This document shows, piece by piece, positions 7,126-32,000 of a stretch of 32,000 nt of DNA. The notes under the pieces are model-generated. The model was not told where the DNA came from. It saw only the letters and a program-made list of their open reading frames with translations, and did not search any database. The position numbers were made by a program, and so were the translations under genes. Origin of the DNA: Chloroflexota bacterium (lineage in GTDB: Bacteria > Chloroflexota > Dehalococcoidia > Lucifugimonadales > UBA2962); assembly GCA_003228095.2 (NCBI GenBank), contig QGNM01000014.1:3879-35878 (forward strand). The letters run 5' to 3'. The first letter of the stretch is position 1, and the number at the start of each line of letters is the position of its first letter.

Positions 7126-8484
7126 TTATATTGTTATATTCTTAAGAGCTTCAATAACGATATGGTCTTGTGCAGGCAATACAGTCCTTGCATCGAGAAT
7201 TACCCGGTCTGCTTCGATCCTTGAAATGATCGGTGTCTCATATATTCGTAGACTATATGAGATCTTACTTGCTGATGAGTTTATTGGCTTTATTGCAAGA
7301 GCATAAGTATCTAGTACTTCTCCAGGCAAACTACCCCCACCAACCGTACTGTGACTTTTGATTACCTTACCTTCAATATGAGTTTCTCTTAGCCAAGTAT
7401 TTATTCTTTCCTTTATTCCTGTCAAGTCAGCGGAGATCATATTCCATATTGGTATTTTTGTCAGGGGCTCATTAGATAGATAGTGTAGTAGGGTTGAATG
7501 AAGAGCTGTTAAATTAAGTTTATCTATCCTTAAAGCTCTCGTTATTGGATGCTCTGACAATTGATCTATGAAAATCTTTTTACCAAGAATTATTCCGCTT
7601 TGTGGACCACCTAAAAGTTTGTCGCCAGAAAAGAAAGTCAGGTCCGCCCCATCTGAAATACTTTTTTGTACAGTAGGTTCAGATCCTAGTCCGAACTGTG
7701 CTGTGTCAATAAATGATCCGCTACCTAAATCATTCAGTACGGGTATATTGTAATTATTCCCAAGGTTCACTAATTCCTGAACCGATGGATTATGAGTAAA
7801 TCCGATTTTTTGAAAATTGCTAGTATGGACTATTAAAATCGCTCCTGTATTATCTGTTATTGCATTTTGATAGTCAGATATATATGTCCGGTTAGTTGTA
7901 CCCACCTCTATCAAATGTGCCCCACTTTGTTCTAGTAACTCCGGTATTCTAAAATTTCCTCCGATTTCTACGGATTCACCTTTGGAAATGATTACTTCTT
8001 TTCCTTTTGCCAAAGCAGTTAAACATAGTAAGGCAGCCGCGGCATTATTGTTAACTACTAATGCTGATTCACTACCTGTAAGTTGTTTTATTAAGGCTTT
8101 TACATGTCTTTGTCGATCACTTCTCCGTGAAGTGATTGGGTCGTATTCGAGATCAGTGTAAACGCCGGCACTAGTGCTGAGTGCGTATATTGTCTGGTCG
8201 CTTAATGGAGCACGTCCAAAATTTGTATGTAAAATAACTCCGGAGGCGTTTACTAGAGGTGCAGGTTGAATAATCCATTTTTCCGATATGAACATTTGTA
8301 TATCTTGGATTATTTTTTTAAATGAAGGAGCTTGTTTACCTGCATTGATATCGTGTCTTATGGATTGTAAGTGCTGTTGGACAAGTTTAACTACACTGTC
8401 ACGTGCATAAGATGTCAACAGAGTTTTAATAGAAGGGTCGTTTAAAACTCGATCGATACTGGGTATGTTCTTGAAATCATTCAT
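7126..8484 (-). CDS. selA: L-seryl-tRNA(Sec) selenium transferase (selenocysteine synthase)
   Basis: 452 aa and collinear with E. coli SelA motifs: IPSIDRVL, GVILHTNFGRAPL, VVNNNAAAALL, SKGESVEIGGNFRIPE, EVGTTNRT, VHTSNF, and FSGDKLLGGPQSGII (PLP lysine). Confidence 0.9.
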   Translation of the reverse strand: MNDFKNIPSIDRVLNDPSIKTLLTSYARDSVVKLVQQHLQSIRHDINAGKQAPSFKKIIQDIQMFISEKWIIQPAPLVNASGVILHTNFGRAPLSDQTIYALSTSAGVYTDLEYDPITSRRSDRQRHVKALIKQLTGSESALVVNNNAAAALLCLTALAKGKEVIISKGESVEIGGNFRIPELLEQSGAHLIEVGTTNRTYISDYQNAITDNTGAILIVHTSNFQKIGFTHNPSVQELVNLGNNYNIPVLNDLGSGSFIDTAQFGLGSEPTVQKSISDGADLTFFSGDKLLGGPQSGIILGKKIFIDQLSEHPITRALRIDKLNLTALHSTLLHYLSNEPLTKIPIWNMISADLTGIKERINTWLRETHIEGKVIKSHSTVGGGSLPGEVLDTYALAIKPINSSASKISYSLRIYETPIISRIEADRVILDARTVLPAQDHIVIEALKNITI

Positions 8485-9275: not shown

Positions 9276-10181
9276 ATGGCGACCAAAACTTCAAATTCGA
9301 CAAAGACTTTATATCAGAGTTACGTAATTGAGGAGTATCATCTTAAGAAAGAACCTTATTATGTTCCTGTGGGAGATGAAATACAGCTTTTTGAAGCTGC
9401 ATATTCACAACGTATTCCGGTGATCTTTAAGGGACCTACAGGCGTAGGTAAGACAAGGTTTGTTGAATATATGTCCTGGAAACTTGGGGTTAATTTGACA
9501 AAGGTAAAGAAAGAAGAGAAACCTGGCGAAGAGCGACAACAAGATAACCTTCCATTGGTCACTATAGCGTGCCATGAAGATCTTACGGCATCAGACCTAG
9601 TCGGTAGATATCTTTTAGAAGGCGATCGCACTGTGTGGATCGATGGTCCACTGACCAGAGCCGTAAAAGCTGGTGGAATATGTTATCTAGATGAGGTGGT
9701 AGAAGCCAGGAAAGACACTACTGTACTGATACATCCATTAACGGATCACAGAAGAATGTTGCCGGTAGAAAAGAAAGGTGAATTAATAGAGGCTGCGGAT
9801 GGATTCCTTTTGGTTTTATCATACAATCCTGGATATCAGAGCGCTTTGAAAGATTTGAAACATAGTACTCGTCAGAGATTTGTATCTATAGAATTTAATC
9901 CTCCCCCAAGAGAAATTGAAGCACAGATAGTTTCACATGAAGCTAATATTGATATTGATATGGCAATGAGGCTAGCTCAGCTAGGAGAAAAAATTCGCAA
10001 TTTAAAGGAACACGGTTTAGGAGAAGGTGCAAGTACAAGATTGCTAATATATGCAGGTAAATTAATGGCAGCAGGTATTAAGCCTAGACGCGCGTGCCAG
10101 GTTGCAGTTAATTGGTCAGTTACTGATGATCACTCGCTACAAAATAGCATTGAAGAAGTCACTGCATCAATTTTCGAGTAA
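9276..10181 (+). CDS. CbbQ/NirQ/NorQ/GpvN-family MoxR-type AAA+ ATPase
   Basis: 301 aa. [35 protein letters not shown] (Walker A), [33 protein letters not shown] and [11 protein letters not shown] track the CbbQ/NorQ family closely. The start is 2 nt after the coaE stop. Confidence 0.85.
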
Positions 10182-10752
10182 TGAGCTAATAGGATCAACT
10201 TTTATTTCAACGAGTGCTGGAAATACACGATGTTTGTCGAAAAAGTATAAACCCGCGGCTGTTATAGCCTTGATATACCCTAAGAACGGAGAACATAATC
10301 TCCTTTTGACAAAAAGAAGTAATGCTTTAGAGCTTCATCCTGGCGAAATTTCTTTTCCTGGAGGACGTGAAAATACGACAGACCTGGATTTAAAAGATAC
10401 AGCTTTAAGAGAATGCGAAGAAGAAGTTGGCATCCATCGGGATCAAATAAAGATCATTAGTGAGTTGGGATCTTTTATAACTAATTCTAATTTTGAGATT
10501 TTTGCTTTTATTGCGACATCGACTCGGGAAATAGAATTTCGCATCAATAGAGACGAGGTAGCACAGATAATAGAATTTCCATTATCTAAGCTGACGAAGG
10601 CTAAATGTATCAGAGATGACCTTTGGGTTGTTAATGGAAAAACAAGATATAAACCCTCCTTTGGATATAAAGGACATTTAATATTTGGTGCTACAGCTAG
10701 AATACTCGATTGTTTGGTGCAAACATTACCTAATACGCCATATAATTCATAA
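10126..10752 (+). CDS. Nudix hydrolase, CoA pyrophosphatase (NudL/Nudt7-like) subfamily; start uncertain
   Basis: [22 protein letters not shown] fits the CoA-Nudix signature ([LM][LF]TxR[SA]x3[RK]x3Gx3FPGG) with one deviation (E for R/K). It is followed by the Nudix box [24 protein letters not shown]. In-frame start candidates are TTG 10102 (ORF track), ATG 10126 and TTG 10234. The first two overlap the upstream gene. Confidence 0.75.
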
Positions 10753-10821: not shown

Positions 10822-13800
10822 TTGAATAATAAGCGAACAACACAGTTAAATAAAAAACTTAAAACTTTCCCCCCTGACGTCAAAGATGAATTTACAAAAG
10901 CGAAACCACATCTTGAGGAATACCTGACTCAACAACAATTATATGAATGGGTTGATTCTGGAATAAAAATTGCATCTCAAAGTAACAATGCTTGGGATAT
11001 CAGTGTGAACATGTTTAGAGTCAGCCCAATTATTATCGGTTCGTTAAAACCAGATGATTTTATGAAGTGGCTAGAAGCAGGCACAAATTTAGCTATTAAG
11101 CACCCTATGCTTGGCACGGCATTCTTTTCTTCAAGTCCTTCATTGGTTCAAGGCATGTCTTCAACGAATATTACAGACTGGGCAAGTTTGGGTGCACAAT
11201 TATATAAAGACACTTGGAAATCAGGGACACTTTCAAATCGTTTTTTTGAGTCAAGCGCTGATTTACTTGAACAGCTTAGTTTTGAAGAATTGACTCGATT
11301 TGTAAGTTTTCTAGATATTGTAGCTAAACATTCTTATGATTTGAGTTCTGAATGCTTGACGTTAGCTCTTCGTTTATTCCCTTTGGTTGGGGAAGACAAA
11401 GGGAGGTTTATATCGCTGTCGCTAAATCTTGTTGAAACGGGCTGGAGACAGTTAAAAGCATTTTATGATGCGAGCTTGAAGGCTTTACCTCGGGTGGATC
11501 GATTACAAAGGAAACGATTCCTTGATTTATCTGAGCGATTACATCTTGAAGGCATAATCAATATGCCCAATACCATTTTGGAAATTTCACAAGCTTTACA
11601 GCTAATAGAGAAACGGGATCATTGTAAATTATTGGATATAGCAGAGCCATTATTAGATCTGCATCCAAGTTCTTTTTCAGAGTTTATAAAAAGTTCTCCA
11701 ATTGTGCTTGCTAAAGTATCTTTTGATAAATTGGATGCTTGGTGTGAAGAAGGTAAAACCTTATTGAAAACAAACCCCGATGGGGGAATGGCTTTTTTTA
11801 AAATTGAATCTTCTCGGTCTGAAAAATTCCTGGAAGAGATTTCATCGGCAGTCGAGTTTCAAACAATAAGTAACGTCATAGAGCTTTACTGTAGAGCTTT
11901 AGCCGGAGAAGAAATTGACTTGGCTGACTCTCGTGACTTGGTGGAAAAAAATATTGGATGGGTAGCAGCTGATTCTCCTACTACCGAAGGCTCTACAGTA
12001 TATTTACCAGAAACAGTAGATAGGTATTCAAAAAAATCTGAAAACTTTTTGTGGTATAAAGTTGTATCCACTCATCAAGTCGGCAGAATGGAATTTGGAA
12101 GTTTTCGGTTCAGATTTGATAAACCTTCAACTCGTTTTGAAAATACTAGAAACTCATTGGAGCTTAAATCTACTGAAGGCACAAATTCTAATATATCGGC
12201 TACTACAGATATCCAGAAGTTTTTCAACTTTTTTGAGGACCGTCAATTAAGCTCAGACATTTTTTCAGTGATTGAAGATGGCAGAGTTGACGCCAAAGTA
12301 AAAGATGATTACAAAGGGATTAGTAAAGGATATGTTTCTATCCAATTGGATGCGCTTAAAGTTCGCCCAAATACACAGGATTTAAATGCTCGTGAAGCTT
12401 TACTTGAATTACTAGTCCAAATTAGTCTGGGACAGAAAAAATCAATATCAGTTCCCAAAAATTATAAAGAAGAAGCATTGGCAATTGTAAAAATTGCTCG
12501 CCATGCAATGGATTCAAGAAGTAGTGTCGAAGATACGTCTGAAGCTACGGTTAGGATATATGCAATCCTGATAGAAGTATCCAATGAAACAGTCGATGAA
12601 GATGATTGGGATCCATTGGATTTTGAGGAAGACGAATCAGAGGGAGACAATTTTTCTGATCCTGAAGGATTGAAAGAGACTCTAGATTCTATGGGTAATT
12701 CTGCAGGAGATGACCCGGCTGATACTCAAGAAGATAAATATAATTCACCTCAAGAAGTTGATTACAGAGGGGAATTCAAGCCTGAGCTGACACAATTGTT
12801 AGAAAAACTTCGTGAACAAGGTCAATATAAAGATGGGGGAAATGACACTGACTCAATAACTCAAGAAATGATGGATCAATTCGCAAAGAATTCAGTCGAG
12901 TTAAGCCAAGAATTAAATGATGGAGCCAGCGGCATAACTAGTGATGAAATAGTTGAGAACATGTTGAAAGAAGTCGGCCTAAAAAAACCAGAATCACTTG
13001 AAGGCGGCCAAGGACCTTTGGTACATGTGGATGAAACCGGAGGTGAGTTGGAATCAGATGAACCTGAAACATTTGTATACGATGAATGGGATTTTAGGGC
13101 AGGAGATTATAAGCCACGATGGTGCATTGTAAGACAGAAATACATGGCTGAAGGAGAAGACTCATATTATGGAAGTATCGTCCAAAGCTATGGGAATTTA
13201 ATTCTTCAGGTTAGACGTCAATTTGAGTTATTAGTTCCAGAAACAATGCGTAAGGAACGTAGGCTTCAAGATGGAGAGGATATAGACATCGATGACGTGA
13301 TTGAAACCATGATTGATATCAAGTCCGGATCAAGCCCAAATGAAAAAATGTATTGGAGACGTAATAAAGTTCACAGGGATGTAGCGGTAGTATTCTTACT
13401 TGATACCAGTGCATCCACAGCTGAAGCCATAGATGATTCTAAATCAAATAGCGATCAATGGAATGCCCCAGAGGATCCAGTGGAGTATATGTTATGGTTA
13501 AGATCCCGTAGAGGTGAAGGTACTAAACGTACATATAAAAGGATAATAGATCTTGAAAAAGAGGCTCTAATCCTCTTAATAAATGCTATCGAAGCTATAG
13601 GAGATACCTATGGTATATACGGATTTTCTGGTTATGGTAGAGAGAATGTTGAGTTTTATACTATCAAAGATGTCGATGAATTGTTTTCTGATAGAGTTAA
13701 ACGCCGGATCGATCGTATAGCTCCATTGCATGCAACAAGGATGGGCCCAGCAATTAGACACTCAACATCCAAATTGGAATCGATAGATGCAAGGACTAAA

Positions 13801-14064
13801 TTATTATTTATGATTAGTGATGGTAGACCTCAAGACCGAGGCTATAGTAGGGAAGGAGTTGAAAAAGAGTATGCCGTACATGACACCAGAATGGCTTTAG
13901 ATGAAGCTAAAAATAAAGGCATTAATACTTTTTGTTTGACAGTTGATCGTAATGGACATGACTACCTTAAAACTATGATGTCTGATATGGGTTATGAGGT
14001 TTTAGACGACATATATACCTTGCCACATAGATTATTATACCTATATCGAAAGTTAACCACTTAA
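10822..14064 (+). CDS. Large VWA-domain protein, CbbO/NorD-like partner of the CbbQ/NorQ ATPase
   Basis: 1080 aa. The C-terminal part carries the NorD/CbbO-type YDEWDF motif followed by a VWA domain with MIDAS VVFLLDTSAST and later MISDGRPQD. The roughly 750 N-terminal residues are not recognisable to me. TTG start as in the ORF track; the first in-frame ATG is about 60 codons further in. Confidence 0.7.
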   Translation: MNNKRTTQLNKKLKTFPPDVKDEFTKAKPHLEEYLTQQQLYEWVDSGIKIASQSNNAWDISVNMFRVSPIIIGSLKPDDFMKWLEAGTNLAIKHPMLGTAFFSSSPSLVQGMSSTNITDWASLGAQLYKDTWKSGTLSNRFFESSADLLEQLSFEELTRFVSFLDIVAKHSYDLSSECLTLALRLFPLVGEDKGRFISLSLNLVETGWRQLKAFYDASLKALPRVDRLQRKRFLDLSERLHLEGIINMPNTILEISQALQLIEKRDHCKLLDIAEPLLDLHPSSFSEFIKSSPIVLAKVSFDKLDAWCEEGKTLLKTNPDGGMAFFKIESSRSEKFLEEISSAVEFQTISNVIELYCRALAGEEIDLADSRDLVEKNIGWVAADSPTTEGSTVYLPETVDRYSKKSENFLWYKVVSTHQVGRMEFGSFRFRFDKPSTRFENTRNSLELKSTEGTNSNISATTDIQKFFNFFEDRQLSSDIFSVIEDGRVDAKVKDDYKGISKGYVSIQLDALKVRPNTQDLNAREALLELLVQISLGQKKSISVPKNYKEEALAIVKIARHAMDSRSSVEDTSEATVRIYAILIEVSNETVDEDDWDPLDFEEDESEGDNFSDPEGLKETLDSMGNSAGDDPADTQEDKYNSPQEVDYRGEFKPELTQLLEKLREQGQYKDGGNDTDSITQEMMDQFAKNSVELSQELNDGASGITSDEIVENMLKEVGLKKPESLEGGQGPLVHVDETGGELESDEPETFVYDEWDFRAGDYKPRWCIVRQKYMAEGEDSYYGSIVQSYGNLILQVRRQFELLVPETMRKERRLQDGEDIDIDDVIETMIDIKSGSSPNEKMYWRRNKVHRDVAVVFLLDTSASTAEAIDDSKSNSDQWNAPEDPVEYMLWLRSRRGEGTKRTYKRIIDLEKEALILLINAIEAIGDTYGIYGFSGYGRENVEFYTIKDVDELFSDRVKRRIDRIAPLHATRMGPAIRHSTSKLESIDARTKLLFMISDGRPQDRGYSREGVEKEYAVHDTRMALDEAKNKGINTFCLTVDRNGHDYLKTMMSDMGYEVLDDIYTLPHRLLYLYRKLTT

Positions 14065-20114: not shown

Positions 20115-21311
20115 ATGAATATTCCAAACACAGAACTTATTTATTTTGATCATGCTGCTACGACTCCATTGGAACCCAAAGTGTTCGAAGCCATGAAACC
20201 ATATTTTTTCGATAATTATGGAAACCCTGCAAGTTTGTATACTTTAGCTCAACAATCTCGGGAGGCAGTTGATGTTGCGAGAGATAAAGTTGCTAGTGTT
20301 TTGAATTGTAAAACCAGTGAAATTGTTTTTACTAGCGGAGGCACTGAGTCAGATAATGCGGCAGTAAAAGGTACAGCGGTTGCTTTAAAAAATGTAGGCA
20401 ATCATATTTTAACTACCTCCATAGAACATCATGCTGTTTTGCATTCATGTCAGCAGCTAGAGCAAATGGGATTTAATGTTACATATTTACCCGTGGATGA
20501 ATTCGGAAAAGTCTCACTTACAGATGTTGAGAATGCGATAACTTCAAAAACTATATTGGTTAGCATAATCATGGCAAATAACGAGATAGGGACGATTCAG
20601 CGAATTTCTGATATATCTAAGGTAATTAAACAAAAAGCAAGTTTTTACAATACAACGATACCTTTTCACACGGACGCTGTGCAAGCAGCAGGTTATTTAG
20701 ACTTAGATGTTCAGAAGTTAGGAGTTGACTTGTTAAGTTTGTCTGCACATAAGTTTTATGGACCTAAAGGAGTGGGGGCGCTTTTTATTAGAAGAGGCAT
20801 ACCGTTTGAACCTCAACAAGCCGGGGGTGGGCAGGAACGAGAGAGACGATCAGGCACACTGAATGTGCCAGGAATTGTTGGTTTAGGCTATGCTTTAGAA
20901 TTGGCTGAGAGCCGTATGGACACTTCTGTTGCGCACTGTTTGGATTTACGAGACAAGTTGATAAAAGAATTGATTGCAAATATACCAGCAACGAAATTGA
21001 ATGGACATCCTGTTGATAGACTTGCTAATAATGTAAATGTTTCTTTCGGTGGAGTGGATGGAGAGCCAATTCTTTTAGGAATGGATTTTGCGGGGATCTT
21101 TGTATCTAGTGGAAGTGCTTGTTCCTCGTCATCACTCGAACCTTCTCATGTTTTACTATCGATTGGTCTTAATGCAGAGGAAGCTAGGGGGAGTTTAAGA
21201 TTTACCCTGGGGTTGAATAATACAGACCAGGAAGTAGAAAAAACTTTGAAAATTCTGGCGGATCTTGTAAAAAAGTTAAGAGAAATGTCTTTCACTCCAG
21301 GAGTGCACTAA
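20115..21311 (+). CDS. Cysteine desulfurase, NifS/IscS-like (class V aminotransferase)
   Basis: 398 aa. [25 protein letters not shown] (PLP lysine) and the active-site loop SSGSACSS indicate a type I desulfurase. Confidence 0.85.
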
Positions 21312-21312
21312 A

Positions 21313-21819
21313 TTGTTAAAATTAATAGTTCTTTCCACAGTAATGTTACTGTTTTTATTGTCTGGCTGTGGCGATAATGATACAAAAGTATTTGCTAAAA
21401 AAGGTAGAAACATACAGATTGTGTATGAAGAGCCAGTTATCGTTAAGAAACTTTTATTTGGCTCTGATGGTAACACTGCTTTACTGGAAGTAGATGATCC
21501 TAGTACTAGAATCGCAGCAGTTAAATTCACAATAGTTAATCAGCAAATTAATATTCTAAAACTTAGTATAGGCACAGATTCAGTTTTTATTGGAAATGGG
21601 ACTAAAGCTATAAGGATTCCTGCTTTATCTCCAACTGAAAATGCAACTGTCCCAGGTAGCTCTGATGGCATCGAAACATTCTCCCCTGTTTTATGGGGTG
21701 ATTTTGAAGTAGAAATGGGATACCAAGCATCGGGATGGATTTTCTTCGAGGTTCCTACAGGCCTAGAGCTCACTACTATATGGTGGCGAGCAGCTGACGA
21801 AATTATAGGAAGATTTTGA
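21313..21819 (+). CDS. Putative lipoprotein, function unknown (possibly DUF4352-like)
   Basis: 168 aa. Signal peptide MLKLIVLSTVMLLFLLSGC with lipobox LSGC. The C-terminal GWIFFEVP resembles DUF4352, recalled from memory and tentative. TTG start 1 nt after the upstream stop. Confidence 0.55.
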   Translation: MLKLIVLSTVMLLFLLSGCGDNDTKVFAKKGRNIQIVYEEPVIVKKLLFGSDGNTALLEVDDPSTRIAAVKFTIVNQQINILKLSIGTDSVFIGNGTKAIRIPALSPTENATVPGSSDGIETFSPVLWGDFEVEMGYQASGWIFFEVPTGLELTTIWWRAADEIIGRF

Positions 21820-22385: not shown

Positions 22386-22480
22386 GGGAGTGGATGGGTC
22401 CCGGTGGACCTCTCGATCTTCAAAATCGTTGGTTCCGGCCCTTCGGCCGGAACGGTGGGTTCGACTCCCTCGCACTCCCG
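22386..22480 (+). tRNA. selC: tRNA-Sec (anticodon UCA)
   Basis: Hand fold. Acceptor GGGAGTG(G) pairs with (G)CACTCCC, followed by discriminator G. The D-stem is 6 bp (GGGTCC/GGACCT) with a 4-nt loop. The anticodon loop is CTTCAAA (TCA at 22420-22422). The variable arm is 9 bp (GTTCCGGCC-CTTC-GGCCGGAAC). The T-arm GGGTTCGACTCCC is identical to E. coli selC in the loop. Length is about 95 nt and CCA is not encoded. A few non-Watson-Crick positions remain in my fold. Confidence 0.85.
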
Positions 22481-22495
22481 CCGTCACTCCTTTAT

Positions 22496-30604: not shown

Positions 30605-31606
30605 TTAACTTTTTCTAAAGTACTTCCAGTTCTTTCGCGACTTGTCTGTCATTTTTCGATACCTATCCATCATGTAAGTTCCTACCATCATTTCAGCCAT
30701 TGTTTCTTTCGCATTAGGCAGACTCGTCGTTTGCTTATCGTCTGGATGCAAAGTTCCTGCTTCCCACTTTGCTCTTTGCTCCCATGCAGTTATAAATGAT
30801 TCAAAAAGTTTGTCTTTATCATCAACAAACTGCTTTCTAAAGTCGTATAGTGATGTAATCATTTCGTCAATCCAATGAATGGTATCTTCGGGATTTAATT
30901 CAGCAGCCAAGCTATTTTCTTCTGGGTCTTTGTCAGCGAGTTGAGTCATTGCATTGAATTCAGGTGTTGATAGCTTAGACATTTCAGGCCAAGCTCTACT
31001 ACGAGATGCTGCAATAATTAAAGCCGATGAAATAACATTGGGCAAAAATGCCATTGCAGAACTATAGCTATCGTGTTCTGCTGAATCCAAGAAATATGGC
31101 TGAGAACCACATTGTTTAACGAGCCAAGTAAGCGTTTGTATTCCTTCGGGAGGGGTATGTTTGTCAGTGACTATGCAGTAGGGAGATCCTGATATTGCTT
31201 CGGCACTTGAGTCTTTTATGCTCCATAAATTTGTTTTTGACACTGGCCTGCCTGCAACAAAGTTTACCGAAGAGGGTAAAAACTGATTAGCCCATTTAAT
31301 AATCGGTTGTTTTAGTGGGCCTGTATCGGTTATTGTTGCACCAGAATCAAAATGAGTAGAAAGATTTTCTAATAAATCCTTAGTATAATGTAACGGTGCG
31401 TCAAGTATGATGATTTCAGCACCGGTGACACATTTTCTGGCACTATTTTCAGTGGCATCTACAGCGCCTATCTTTTTAGCTAATTTTAAATTACCAGGCT
31501 CTGCTCCAGCAGCGGTTATATGGAATTCGTTTTTATGATTCTTCTTTAAGGATAGTGCTATGCACATTCCGATCGGATTAATACCGAGTATAGCTATCTT
31601 AGTCAT
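30605..31606 (-). CDS. tyrA: Prephenate/arogenate dehydrogenase family protein
   Basis: 333 aa. The N-terminal Rossmann motif IAILGINPIG is an atypical GxNxxG. SAEHDSYSSAMAFLPNVISSAL matches the conserved HD...SHLPH region. It sits directly upstream of aroA and has a C-terminal extension of about 60 aa. Confidence 0.7.
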   Translation of the reverse strand: MTKIAILGINPIGMCIALSLKKNHKNEFHITAAGAEPGNLKLAKKIGAVDATENSARKCVTGAEIIILDAPLHYTKDLLENLSTHFDSGATITDTGPLKQPIIKWANQFLPSSVNFVAGRPVSKTNLWSIKDSSAEAISGSPYCIVTDKHTPPEGIQTLTWLVKQCGSQPYFLDSAEHDSYSSAMAFLPNVISSALIIAASRSRAWPEMSKLSTPEFNAMTQLADKDPEENSLAAELNPEDTIHWIDEMITSLYDFRKQFVDDKDKLFESFITAWEQRAKWEAGTLHPDDKQTTSLPNAKETMAEMMVGTYMMDRYRKMTDKSRKNWKYFRKS

Positions 31607-31760
31607 AATAATATTTTCTTTACAACACCGTTATTAAATTCTATTCATACATTATAGAAAGATATTTCTTTCGGGGGAAAGCCTTATCTTATCGGTATTA
31701 GACAGGTGTTCAATGCCTATATTTTATTTAAACAAAGGTTGAAGAATTAACTACTTAAAT

Positions 31761-32000
31761 TTAATTTGCCCCACAACCGCATGCACCACTACCACAACCC
31801 CCAGCGCTAGATGTTTCTTCTGTAGTCTGGGCACTTGCAGGATCAACCGATGGGTTGGATCCACCACCACAACCGCATGCACCACTACCACAACCCCCAG
31901 CGCTAGATGTTTCTTCTGTAGTCTGGGCACTTGCAGGATCAACCGATGGGTTGGATCCACCACCGCACCCACATCCACCACTACCACAACCCCCAGCGCT
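31761..32000 (-). CDS. 3' end of a gene encoding a repetitive Gly/Cys/Ser-rich protein or peptide precursor; the 5' end lies right of the window
   Basis: The minus-strand frame ends at TAA (31763-31761) and is open to base 32000. It reads ...SAGGCGSGGCGCGGGSNPSVDPASAQTTEETS SAGGCGSGACGCGGGSNPSVDPASAQTTEETS SAGGCGSGACGCGAN*. Third codon positions in this frame are about 25% G/C per 32-codon unit, matching the AT-rich genome. The ORF-track frame gives about 59%. Confidence 0.55.
   Translation of the reverse strand, partial: SAGGCGSGGCGCGGGSNPSVDPASAQTTEETSSAGGCGSGACGCGGGSNPSVDPASAQTTEETSSAGGCGSGACGCGAN
31771..32000. repeat. 96-bp tandem repeat: two perfect copies plus a diverged partial third copy, truncated by the window edge
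   Basis: 31771-31866 and 31867-31962 are identical base for base. 31963-32000 is a variant (CCGCACCCACATCC versus CCACAACCGCATGC). Local GC is far above the window average. Confidence 0.95.

Follow-up and report, generated by a model that had tools for sequence, protein, structure and literature searches.

The window analysed here, a stretch of 32,000 nucleotides from a Chloroflexota bacterium, ends within a tandem repeat that is followed, in the direction of transcription, by a short spacer and by tyrA, aroA and gmk (Table 1). Tandem Repeats Finder reports the repeat as one array with a period of 96, 97% matches and a score of 432. The units at 31771-31866 and 31867-31962 differ at none of their 96 positions, the partial third unit is changed at 4 of 38 nt, and the longest exact self-match of the repeat at a lag of 96 is 98 nt. 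GC content is 0.56 in the repeat segment and 0.38 in the window as a whole. By codon position, the GC of the tail encoded by the repeat is 0.60/0.82/0.28, and the third-position value of 0.28 matches those of tyrA (0.32), aroA (0.30) and the N-terminal domain encoded by the same gene (0.27). These results bear out the preliminary description of this DNA, which had reported a 96-bp tandem repeat with two identical units, a GC-rich segment with AT-rich third positions and a 32-aa cassette structure.

On the minus strand the repeat translates as SAGGCGSGGCGCGGGS NPSVDPASAQTTEETS SAGGCGSGACGCGGGS NPSVDPASAQTTEETS SAGGCGSGACGCGAN*. Since four of its six frames are open, openness by itself is no proof of coding. 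We recovered the full gene from public contigs that read through the repeat and match the window without a difference in its last 240 nt. These contigs join the Gly/Cys/Ser frame to a PF01521 domain; the frame is therefore real, as had been proposed, and the 78-aa valine-rich ORF had rightly been taken for a shadow of it. A proline-rich gene on the plus strand was considered and rejected: the plus frames are open, but the ORF of the carrier gene described below covers the region. Valine-rich or arginine-rich runs stand in place of part of the Gly/Cys tail in some database entries (P0062 and P0027), which look frameshifted. No terminator-like site was found in the spacer between the carrier gene and tyrA, and a promoter scan of this spacer returned one weak promoter-like site, no more than shuffled sequence did. 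The only Rfam match in the window is a tRNA-Sec.

Table 1. Features at the right-hand end of the window (positions in the window).
Feature	Position	Strand	Remarks
96-bp tandem repeat array, DNA level	31771..32000	.	2.4 copies here; the full contigs that match best have 3 modules
A-type Fe-S carrier gene, last 79 codons (Gly/Cys/Ser C-terminal tail)	31764..32000	-	240-nt identity to L001, L004 and L008; 5' part lies past the window end
TAA stop of the carrier gene	31761..31763	-	...CGCGAN*
Last 32-aa module, GGSNPSVDPASAQTTEETSSAGGCGSGACGCG	31770..31865	-	followed by terminal Ala-Asn codons, 31764-31769
Penultimate 32-aa module	31866..31961	-	one synonymous base apart from the last module in this register
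3' part of an earlier module, SAGGCGSGGCGCG	31962..32000	-	cut at the window end; GGC variant of the Cys block
78-aa Val-rich ORF	31751..31987	-	shadow frame, no gene; true frame fixed by PF01521 continuity in L001
Spacer between carrier gene and tyrA	31607..31760	.	154 nt; intergenic
tyrA (prephenate dehydrogenase)	30605..31606	-	conserved downstream neighbour; then aroA, gmk

The full ORF has 217 codons in three read-through contigs (L001, L004 and L008) and 185 or 249 codons in other assemblies, and it starts with a TTG preceded by GAGG. Residues 8-112 of the L001 ORF match PF01521 (62.5 bits, cutoff 26.3; 5e-17) and TIGR00049 (90.5 bits, cutoff 58.8), and the canonical ligand cysteines are all present as Cys42, Cys109 and Cys111 (C-x66-C-x-C). 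Cys42, in SGCGGG, aligns with GGCSG of AQ_1857 and HI1723, while Cys109 and Cys111 fall on the CGC of the PDB homologues; the PDB sequence matches are Aquifex AQ_1857 (6.5e-21), HI1723, E. coli IscA, the T. elongatus [2Fe-2S] IscA and SufA. An AF2 model built on P0001, which is 94% identical to the L001 protein, superposes on E. coli IscA (1r94_A; target-normalised TM 0.86, rmsd 1.8 Å) and also on the SufA/holo-IscA structures 2d2a and 1x0g. Its pLDDT is 75-89 per 10-residue block over residues 11-100, with 85-89 at residues 11-40 and 51-90, and lies below 50 at residues 107-217, where the model predicts a disordered tail. The repeats are thus almost certainly the 3' end of an A-type Fe-S carrier (ATC; IscA/SufA/ErpA/HesB) gene from marine SAR202/Dehalococcoidia (Chloroflexota), and the nearest genomes are the Chloroflexota MAG NAT137 (89%) and a SAR202 ALOHA MAG (81%). 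Judged by its equivalog scores, all of which are under cutoff (ErpA 75.9 against 117, SufA 58.9 against 136, IscA 57.5 against 150), the protein is a family member to which no named subfamily can be assigned.

In the best-matching contigs the protein consists of an ATC domain of about 105 aa, a GGGG-CGC extension with its CGC at residues 118-120, and three tandem 32-aa modules. Thirteen cysteines follow the NPN motif of the 217-aa protein, and 11 of them lie past the canonical CxC. Canonical A-type carriers are single-domain proteins of about 105-125 aa with three invariant cysteines. The present protein is like IscA, SufA, ErpA and HesB in having a domain that scores above the curated cutoffs, the three ligand cysteines and a fold that overlies E. 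coli IscA, SufA and T. elongatus holo-IscA; canonical ATCs, however, stop a few residues past the CxC (for example ...CGCGESF), whereas this one continues for about 105 residues with its 11 extra cysteines. The preliminary description had conceded that its reading would fall if the full-length gene encoded a large ordinary protein with the units as an interdomain linker. The protein is indeed ordinary, but it is small rather than large and the units form its C-terminal tail. The whole protein has 217 aa, in which neither a signal peptide nor a second domain was detected, and a linker of a large secreted protein could be rejected.

Across Dehalococcoidia the carrier gene belongs to the syntenic core, and it looks single-copy. 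Of 80 species loci, 48 keep the order carrier-tyrA-aroA-gmk; counted singly in the same loci, the downstream genes include tyrA in 48 cases, gmk in 46 and aroA in 36, and S1 lies upstream in 18. The 9 kb upstream of the gene in L001 carry genes for 5S rRNA, S1, ClpC, LarC, EF-Tu, L33, SecE, NusG, L11 and L1.

The modules have the 32-aa consensus GGS[KN]P[PS]VDPAS-x9-GGCGSG[GA]CGCG, in which a spacer rich in proline, acidic and hydroxyl residues precedes a C-G-S-G-x-C-G-C block with three cysteines; the protein ends in ...CGCGAN. In L001 the module that the window end truncates reads GGSKPSADPASVENTGETSSAGGCGSGGCGCG in full. Within each gene the modules are homogenised, and proteins of ≥90% identity have between one and four of them; both features point to unequal recombination or replication slippage acting on the 96-bp unit. 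Across 20 distinct modules the GCGSG.CGCG block is invariant and the middle nine residues vary freely. Between modules 1 and 2 of L001, the spacer carries six nonsynonymous changes and one synonymous change, and the Cys block carries three synonymous changes, which keep Cys, Gly and Cys, together with one Gly/Ala change. We read these patterns in the sequence as suggesting that the tail is selected and not noise.

Gly/Cys tails are present in all 120 best homologues and in all but 2 of the 76 species loci with a readable tail, the exceptions being an Actinomycetota protein and a tail that ends after CGCGGGG. Among the 120 best homologues the tails span 19-115 aa, contain 3-13 cysteines and end in GCGGH in 59 cases, and the GGGG-CGC extension is common to all Chloroflexota relatives examined. 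The canonical Cys1 is absent from 114 of the 120 best relatives (Chloroflexota/Dehalococcoidia), a further departure from the ATC norm; the clade of the window retains it, and the tail is therefore not needed to complete the ligand set there. Modules of a separate origin, built of a spacer plus GGCxCGGGGCG, occur in other lineages (L029, L058, L078, L015 and P0022), and several of these carry a terminal His or spacers rich in His. When the 106-aa tail was used as query, a word-index search returned two ATCs of the same clade and nothing else; an exhaustive phmmer search of 1.84 billion representatives with the 79 residues encoded in the window picked up P0002 alone, although HMMER composition correction may hide looser Gly/Cys tails. 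The module was thus found in no other protein context by these searches. Gly/Cys-tailed ATCs were likewise not described in the literature that we covered, including ATC phylogenomics papers; this coverage is incomplete and such an absence is no proof.

Across the family, the conserved motif for cluster binding is the pair of cysteines at the C-terminus (PMC7144353). We propose that the CxC of an ATC, carried on a flexible arm, would ligate, in the dimer, either iron or a cluster of the [2Fe-2S] or [4Fe-4S] type, and that the modules may duplicate this ligand set along a longer, beads-on-a-string arm. The added thiolate sites could then serve to bind Fe or Fe-S clusters, retain them or pass them on, which might give the carrier a higher capacity or reach when it takes clusters from a scaffold and gives them to apo-proteins. 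That the modules supply further sets of cysteine ligands, on a flexible arm, for Fe or Fe-S is plausible, if a little short of probable; taken jointly, the identity of the carrier and a Fe/Fe-S-ligating function of its tail form a reading that we consider moderately probable. Several points weigh against this function. The clade of the window, with Cys1 retained, has no need of the tail for a full ligand set, we know of no established Fe-S motif of the form C-x4-C-x-C, and CxC runs are equally typical of metallothioneins. The extremely variable length and copy number of the tail are a counterpoint to a Fe/Fe-S arm and, with the frameshifted database entries, argue for weak constraint on module number.

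Parallels exist in other proteins. SlyD, like HypB and HspA, bears a disordered C-terminal extension of variable length, rich in metal-ligating residues and glycine, on a chaperone-type host; SlyD extensions are 2-50 residues long, are rich in His and Cys and bind several ions per chain, among Ni2+, Zn2+ and Co2+, with up to 7 Ni in E. coli (PMC10653786). The tail described here is likewise variable in length, rich in ligand residues and, by prediction, disordered. SlyD tails, however, sit on another host fold, are dominated by His and are aperiodic, whereas the present tail uses Cys and Gly only, in exact 32-aa modules that continue a Fe-S ligand motif, and its metal binding is putative. NfuA combines an A-type domain with a second, C-terminal cysteine-based cluster-binding element (PMC2682760), and the ATC part of the carrier has a weak NfuA match in NCBIfam. 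The addition in NfuA is a folded Nfu domain with a CxxC, attached to a degenerate ATC domain; here, an intact ATC domain is followed by a disordered repeat.

The alternative that survives best, although we think it somewhat unlikely, is that the tail has expanded as low-complexity sequence in a largely neutral way and that only its proximal CxC(GGGG)CxC is functional. Versions of 153, 185, 217 and 249 aa, with one to four modules, fall into one 90%-identity cluster, their copy number being uncertain where it comes from short reads; the 185-, 217- and 249-aa versions, with two to four modules, have an identical N-terminal domain, and L006 (two modules) and L001 (three modules) are 100% identical over 6.4 kb upstream. 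GGN/TGY-rich DNA and a 96-bp unit would slip or recombine easily, lengthening or shortening tails without consequence, and the 19-115 aa range of homologue tails, the predicted disorder and the apparently frameshifted Arg-rich or Val-rich tails of P0027, P0030, P0062, P0075 and P0105 are all consistent with this. Neutrality sits poorly, however, with a Cys block that stays invariant in 20 distinct modules while the spacers vary, and that changes synonymously where the spacers change nonsynonymously. The distal terminus, CGCGG[HA] or CGCGAN, is also conserved, the design of a spacer plus a Cys block has arisen independently in several lineages, and no homologue has gone back to a plain CxC ending, one Actinomycetota protein excepted.

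It is unlikely, in our view, that the tail instead stores or buffers a metal other than in Fe-S form (Ni, Zn, Co or Cu), or relays sulfur by carrying persulfide from a desulfurase. CxC motifs in a disordered Gly-rich tail do resemble metallothionein and SlyD tails, sister lineages have the His-rich spacers and terminal His noted above, and an IscS/NifS-type cysteine desulfurase is encoded in the window 10 kb from the carrier gene. The tail is, however, joined straight to the cluster-ligating CxC of a Fe-S carrier and copies that motif, and the modules of the window clade lack His. A further pointer is a LarC (Ni_insertion) gene 4.4 kb upstream, but a functional link with it was rejected because ClpC, S1 and the 5S rRNA gene intervene and LarC is upstream of the carrier in only 11 of 80 loci. 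Bacterial metallothioneins share the CxC in a Gly-rich, low-complexity context but are free-standing small proteins, whereas this repeat is fused to an ATC domain; no Pfam metallothionein match was obtained, PF01521 being the only significant Pfam match. The preliminary description had listed a metallothionein-like or thiolate-cluster repeat as a second choice, and this came close to the Fe/Fe-S ligand arm favoured here, in which metal binding is likewise putative.

Its first choice was a multi-core RiPP precursor, in which the ATC domain would now have to act as a large leader, much as Nif11- or NHLP-derived leaders do, and the Gly/Cys/Ser cassettes as heterocyclised, excised cores; this is highly improbable. 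Identical Gly/Cys/Ser-rich cassettes with spacers do resemble TOMM cores and those of PatE, a likeness of composition and layout only, and housekeeping protein families have given rise to leaders before. The cassettes, however, are preceded not by a leader peptide but by a complete ATC domain that retains its ligand cysteines and fold, in a gene syntenic with tyrA-aroA-gmk across a bacterial class, and the module is confined to this ATC clade among 1.84 billion representatives. The NHLP, Nif11 and heterocycloanthracin models gave no NCBIfam match at E ≤ 1, and the only RiPP-type line, TQQ, was noise (E = 0.78). By Pfam content, YcaO, McbBCD, radical-SAM, PatA/G, LanM and C39-ABC genes are absent from the ~9 kb upstream in L001 and the 31.7 kb downstream. 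A precursor like those of TOMMs, microcin B17 or heterocycloanthracin would be accompanied by a leader and by a nearby cyclodehydratase (YcaO or McbBCD) and dehydrogenase; one like PatE would be accompanied by a PatA/PatG protease, a PatD heterocyclase and recognition sequences, and here the spacers are variable, with no conserved sites besides KPPVDPAS. The partner genes that had been expected beyond the window are replaced upstream by the rRNA, ribosomal, SecE/NusG and other genes listed above, and the lack of modification, protease and export genes within 9 kb upstream and 31.7 kb downstream is an outcome that the preliminary description had itself named as telling against its reading. ATC identity, clade-wide tails, synteny and the absence of RiPP genes nearby thus leave the precursor reading unsupported: the module-tailed carrier is a housekeeping protein in an undescribed form and no precursor of an antibiotic peptide.

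That the repeat itself is an assembly artefact, a caution also raised beforehand, deserves scarcely any credence: the window does stop within the repeat, 5 of the 10 retrieved public contigs also start inside it (L002, L003, L005, L009 and L010), and module number does differ between assemblies, but independent contigs from ENA, JGI and Logan data match the window at every repeat base that they hold (240 nt without a mismatch in five contigs, L001-L004 and L008, and 40-51 nt in L005, L009 and L010), the 98-nt self-match is shorter than the k of 141 of the read-through contigs, and orthologues further removed carry one- and two-module versions of their own. Of these contigs, L002 and L003 come from Arctic Ocean metagenomes.

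Extending the Fe/Fe-S ligand arm to the whole group, we raise the more doubtful possibility that Chloroflexota ATCs are a distinct, undescribed subtype in which ligation has moved to the Gly/Cys arm, and that each SAR202 module ligates a Fe/Fe-S centre, making the protein a multi-cluster carrier or iron buffer whose capacity is set by a polymorphism of one to four modules in ocean populations. For annotation, the locus teaches that Gly/Cys-rich repeats should not be taken as RiPP cores without their context, and that such a repeat disrupts short-read assemblies and yields shadow or frameshifted ORFs in databases. A whole bacterial class departs from the ATC rule, with Gly/Cys tails in the relatives examined and Cys1 mostly lost, and in SAR202, an abundant deep-ocean group, the ligand motif has become a polymorphic tandem array. 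Were the modules to bind clusters or iron, constructs with zero to four of them would offer Fe-S biochemists a simple test system, and the array would be a natural experiment in tuning the capacity and reach of a carrier, possibly to iron scarcity.

The Gly/Cys/Ser cassettes at the right-hand end of the window belong to an iron-sulfur carrier, whose C-terminal tail they form; they do not make up a free peptide. The tyrA protein adjoining the repeat is present on 22 public contigs, and three tyrA-bearing contigs (L001, L004 and L008) span the whole repeat, match the last 240 nt of the window identically and show 0-1 mismatches over the 1.4-9 kb compared beyond it. Through them, the extension and full ORF recovery proposed in the preliminary description were achieved: in all three, the carrier ORF has 217 codons and a TTG start preceded by GAGG. 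PF01521 Fe-S_biosyn (62.5 bits) and TIGR00049 (90.5 bits against a cutoff of 58.8) both cover residues 8-112, while the ErpA, SufA and IscA models rank next, each under its own equivalog cutoff. Sequence matches in the PDB are A-type carriers only, namely Aquifex AQ_1857 (6.5e-21), HI1723, E. coli IscA, the T. elongatus [2Fe-2S] IscA and SufA, and Cys42, Cys109 and Cys111 line up with the ligand cysteines of these homologues. An AlphaFold model made for homologue P0001, which is 94% identical to the carrier, has a pLDDT of 75-89 per 10-residue block over residues 11-100 (most blocks 85-89) and matches E. coli IscA with a target-normalised TM of 0.86 and an rmsd of 1.8 Å; residues 107-217 fall below 50 and are predicted to be disordered. 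The protein is a genuine member of the A-type carrier (ATC) family with an unusual tail architecture.

The 96-bp array is the single long-period array detected in the window by Tandem Repeats Finder, the five other rows having periods of 6-9 and scores of 30-36. Its two complete units are mutually identical, as first described, and the incomplete third one departs from them at 4 of 38 bases. GC content is 0.56 in the repeat segment versus 0.38 in the window, and the tail frame has GC1/GC2/GC3 of 0.60/0.82/0.28, which confirms AT-rich third positions within the GC spike, close to those of tyrA (0.32) and aroA (0.30). Openness by itself is insufficient to fix the tail frame, since the segment is open in four of the six frames. 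Continuity with the PF01521 domain in the read-through contigs establishes that the minus-strand Gly/Cys/Ser frame is correct and that the 78-aa valine-rich ORF is a shadow frame, both as previously proposed.

Beyond ...NPNQPATGG-C-A-C, the protein continues with GGGG-C-G-C-G, three 32-aa modules and a terminal AN. The module consensus is GGS[KN]P[PS]VDPAS-x9-GGCGSG[GA]CGCG; a comparison of 20 distinct modules, drawn from 15 close relatives, shows the GCGSG.CGCG block to be invariant and the middle nine residues to be freely variable. Between modules 1 and 2 of L001, the spacer carries six nonsynonymous changes and one synonymous change, whereas the Cys block carries three synonymous changes (Cys, Gly and Cys kept) and one Gly/Ala change. 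This contrast in the sequences indicates purifying selection on the tail cysteines in the carrier frame. That the tail is instead a nearly neutral, low-complexity product of slippage is conceivable, though we consider it unlikely. Among 1.84 billion representatives, searched exhaustively, the 32-aa module turned up only in the same clade's ATC, and a word-index search with the tail likewise gave no other module context.

The organism belongs to SAR202/Dehalococcoidia, its nearest genomes being Chloroflexota MAG NAT137 (89%) and a SAR202 ALOHA MAG (81%). Gly/Cys tails occur in all 120 best protein matches (median length 38.5 aa, maximum 115; 3-13 Cys, 59% Gly), 59 of which end in GCGGH, and, with two exceptions, in the 76 species loci with a readable tail. 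These two are L088, an Actinomycetota protein with a canonical ending, and L028, whose tail ends after CGCGGGG; no full form is shorter than NPNxxGGCACGGGGCGC(G/S)GG. The canonical first ligand cysteine (Cys42 here) is absent in 114 of the 120 closest A-type carriers (Chloroflexota/Dehalococcoidia), where the loop PGPGGALQY or PGANGGFQY stands in place of GGCSG (P0007-P0120; loci L013-L090), and all 114 have at least three Cys in the Gly/Cys tail. Among these 120, it is limited to the window's clade (P0001-P0006), inside SSGCGGG or SGSGGCGSGGGG. Spacer-plus-Cys-block repeats in other lineages (L029, L058, L078, L015 and P0022), some with His-rich spacers, originated separately. Downstream of the carrier gene lie tyrA (48/80 species loci), gmk (46/80) and aroA (36/80), and this synteny identifies a vertically inherited core gene.

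IscA structures place the two-Cys motif on a flexible segment at the C-terminus; this segment lacks order in the apo form and, in 1x0g, ligates the cluster across the dimer. The present tail, also predicted to be disordered, begins at the two-Cys motif and repeats it in modules with conserved cysteines. This motif is the conserved cluster-binding element of A-type carriers (PMC7144353). The likeliest reading is that the modules supply extra sets of thiolate ligands on a long flexible arm, which would hold or hand on iron or Fe-S clusters. Functionally, the closest counterparts are the SlyD extensions, which are rich in His and Cys, differ in length and take up several Ni, Zn or Co ions (PMC10653786). 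A role of the tail in buffering other metals or relaying persulfide is somewhat more doubtful than neutrality.

Module number varies. One 90%-identity cluster contains versions of 153, 185, 217 and 249 aa (1-4 modules), of which the last three share an identical N-terminal domain, and unit order is altered in one three-module version. L006 (two modules) and L001 (three) are 100% identical across 6.4 kb upstream. Orthologues further away carry a single module (L011, L012, P0004) or a pair of self-similar modules whose spacer sequence is their own (P0002, P0003, P0133), a pattern suggesting that expansion recurred or that the modules evolved in concert. At lag 96, no exact self-match is longer than 98 nt, so the array is resolvable at k=141 and not by smaller k; for this reason the window and 5 of the 10 contigs retrieved with tyrA (L002, L003, L005, L009, L010) break inside it. 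Short-read assemblies systematically break at the repeat, which is nevertheless real, an assembly artefact being highly improbable; the window genome has at least 2.4 modules, most likely three. Arg-rich or Val-rich tails in the database homologues P0027, P0030, P0062, P0075 and P0105 resemble frameshifted translations of Gly/Cys-coding DNA, and P0023, with 224 aa, is chimeric and has an unrelated N-terminus. Errors in sequencing, assembly or gene calling seem to stem from the low-complexity tail.

The preliminary description raised a possible multi-core peptide precursor, a RiPP reading in which any partner genes would lie beyond the window. NHLP, Nif11 and heterocycloanthracin models gave no match to the carrier, and neither the 9 kb beyond the window nor the 31.7 kb inside it encodes YcaO, McbBCD, radical-SAM, PatA/G protease or C39 exporter proteins. 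The former, upstream of the carrier, holds 5S rRNA, S1, ClpC, LarC, EF-Tu, L33, SecE, NusG, L11 and L1; the latter holds tyrA, aroA, gmk, M1 peptidase, glycerate kinase, luciferase-like oxidoreductase, SDR, thioredoxin, agmatinase, SAM decarboxylase, ABC-2 transporter, CoaE, MgsA, MFS transporter, beta-eliminating lyase, fumarase and CCA-adding enzyme. With the carrier domain intact, the synteny class-wide and no such partner genes nearby, a RiPP or antibiotic precursor is scarcely credible. Selenoprotein machinery is encoded in this SAR202 genome, as the tRNA-Sec and SelA genes show; in public contigs, a probably spurious gene call of 77 aa overlaps tRNA-Sec.

Features of the carrier tail and its surroundings (window positions unless a contig is named)
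Feature	Position	Strand	Details
96-bp array	31771-32000		2.4 copies, 97% matches, score 432 (Tandem Repeats Finder, 32-kb window)
Carrier tail translation	31764-32000	-	...SAGGCGSGGCGCGGGS-NPSVDPASAQTTEETS-SAGGCGSGACGCGGGS-NPSVDPASAQTTEETS-SAGGCGSGACGCGAN*
Carrier stop codon	31761-31763	-	
5S rRNA gene	L001 8842-8958	-	Rfam 81.5 bits; ~240 nt upstream of carrier, between S1 and carrier
IscS/NifS-type cysteine desulfurase	20115-21311	+	TIGR03402 513 bits; exceeds NF002806 cutoff; ~10 kb from carrier gene
168-aa lipoprotein-like ORF (LLSGCG)	21313-21819	+	Next after cysteine desulfurase; no family match
tRNA-Sec	22386-22482	+	Rfam 66 bits; ARAGORN anticodon TCA
SelA selenocysteine synthase gene	7126-8484	-	
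CbbQ/NorQ-type AAA+ ATPase	9276-10181	+	Near 1080-aa protein (CbbQ/VWA pair)
NUDIX-domain ORF	10102-10752		Between ATPase and 1080-aa protein
1080-aa protein	10822-14064	+	Weak C-terminal VWA match; no NCBIfam family

In the literature that could be searched, we met no account of A-type carriers with Gly/Cys tails or repeated modules, and public annotations of the homologues read only 'iron-sulfur cluster assembly accessory protein' or 'HesB/IscA family protein'; the tail architecture is undescribed. Ligands have moved onto a Gly/Cys arm throughout the lineage, and the module array of an abundant ocean bacterium is polymorphic; both phenomena are real and can be tested.
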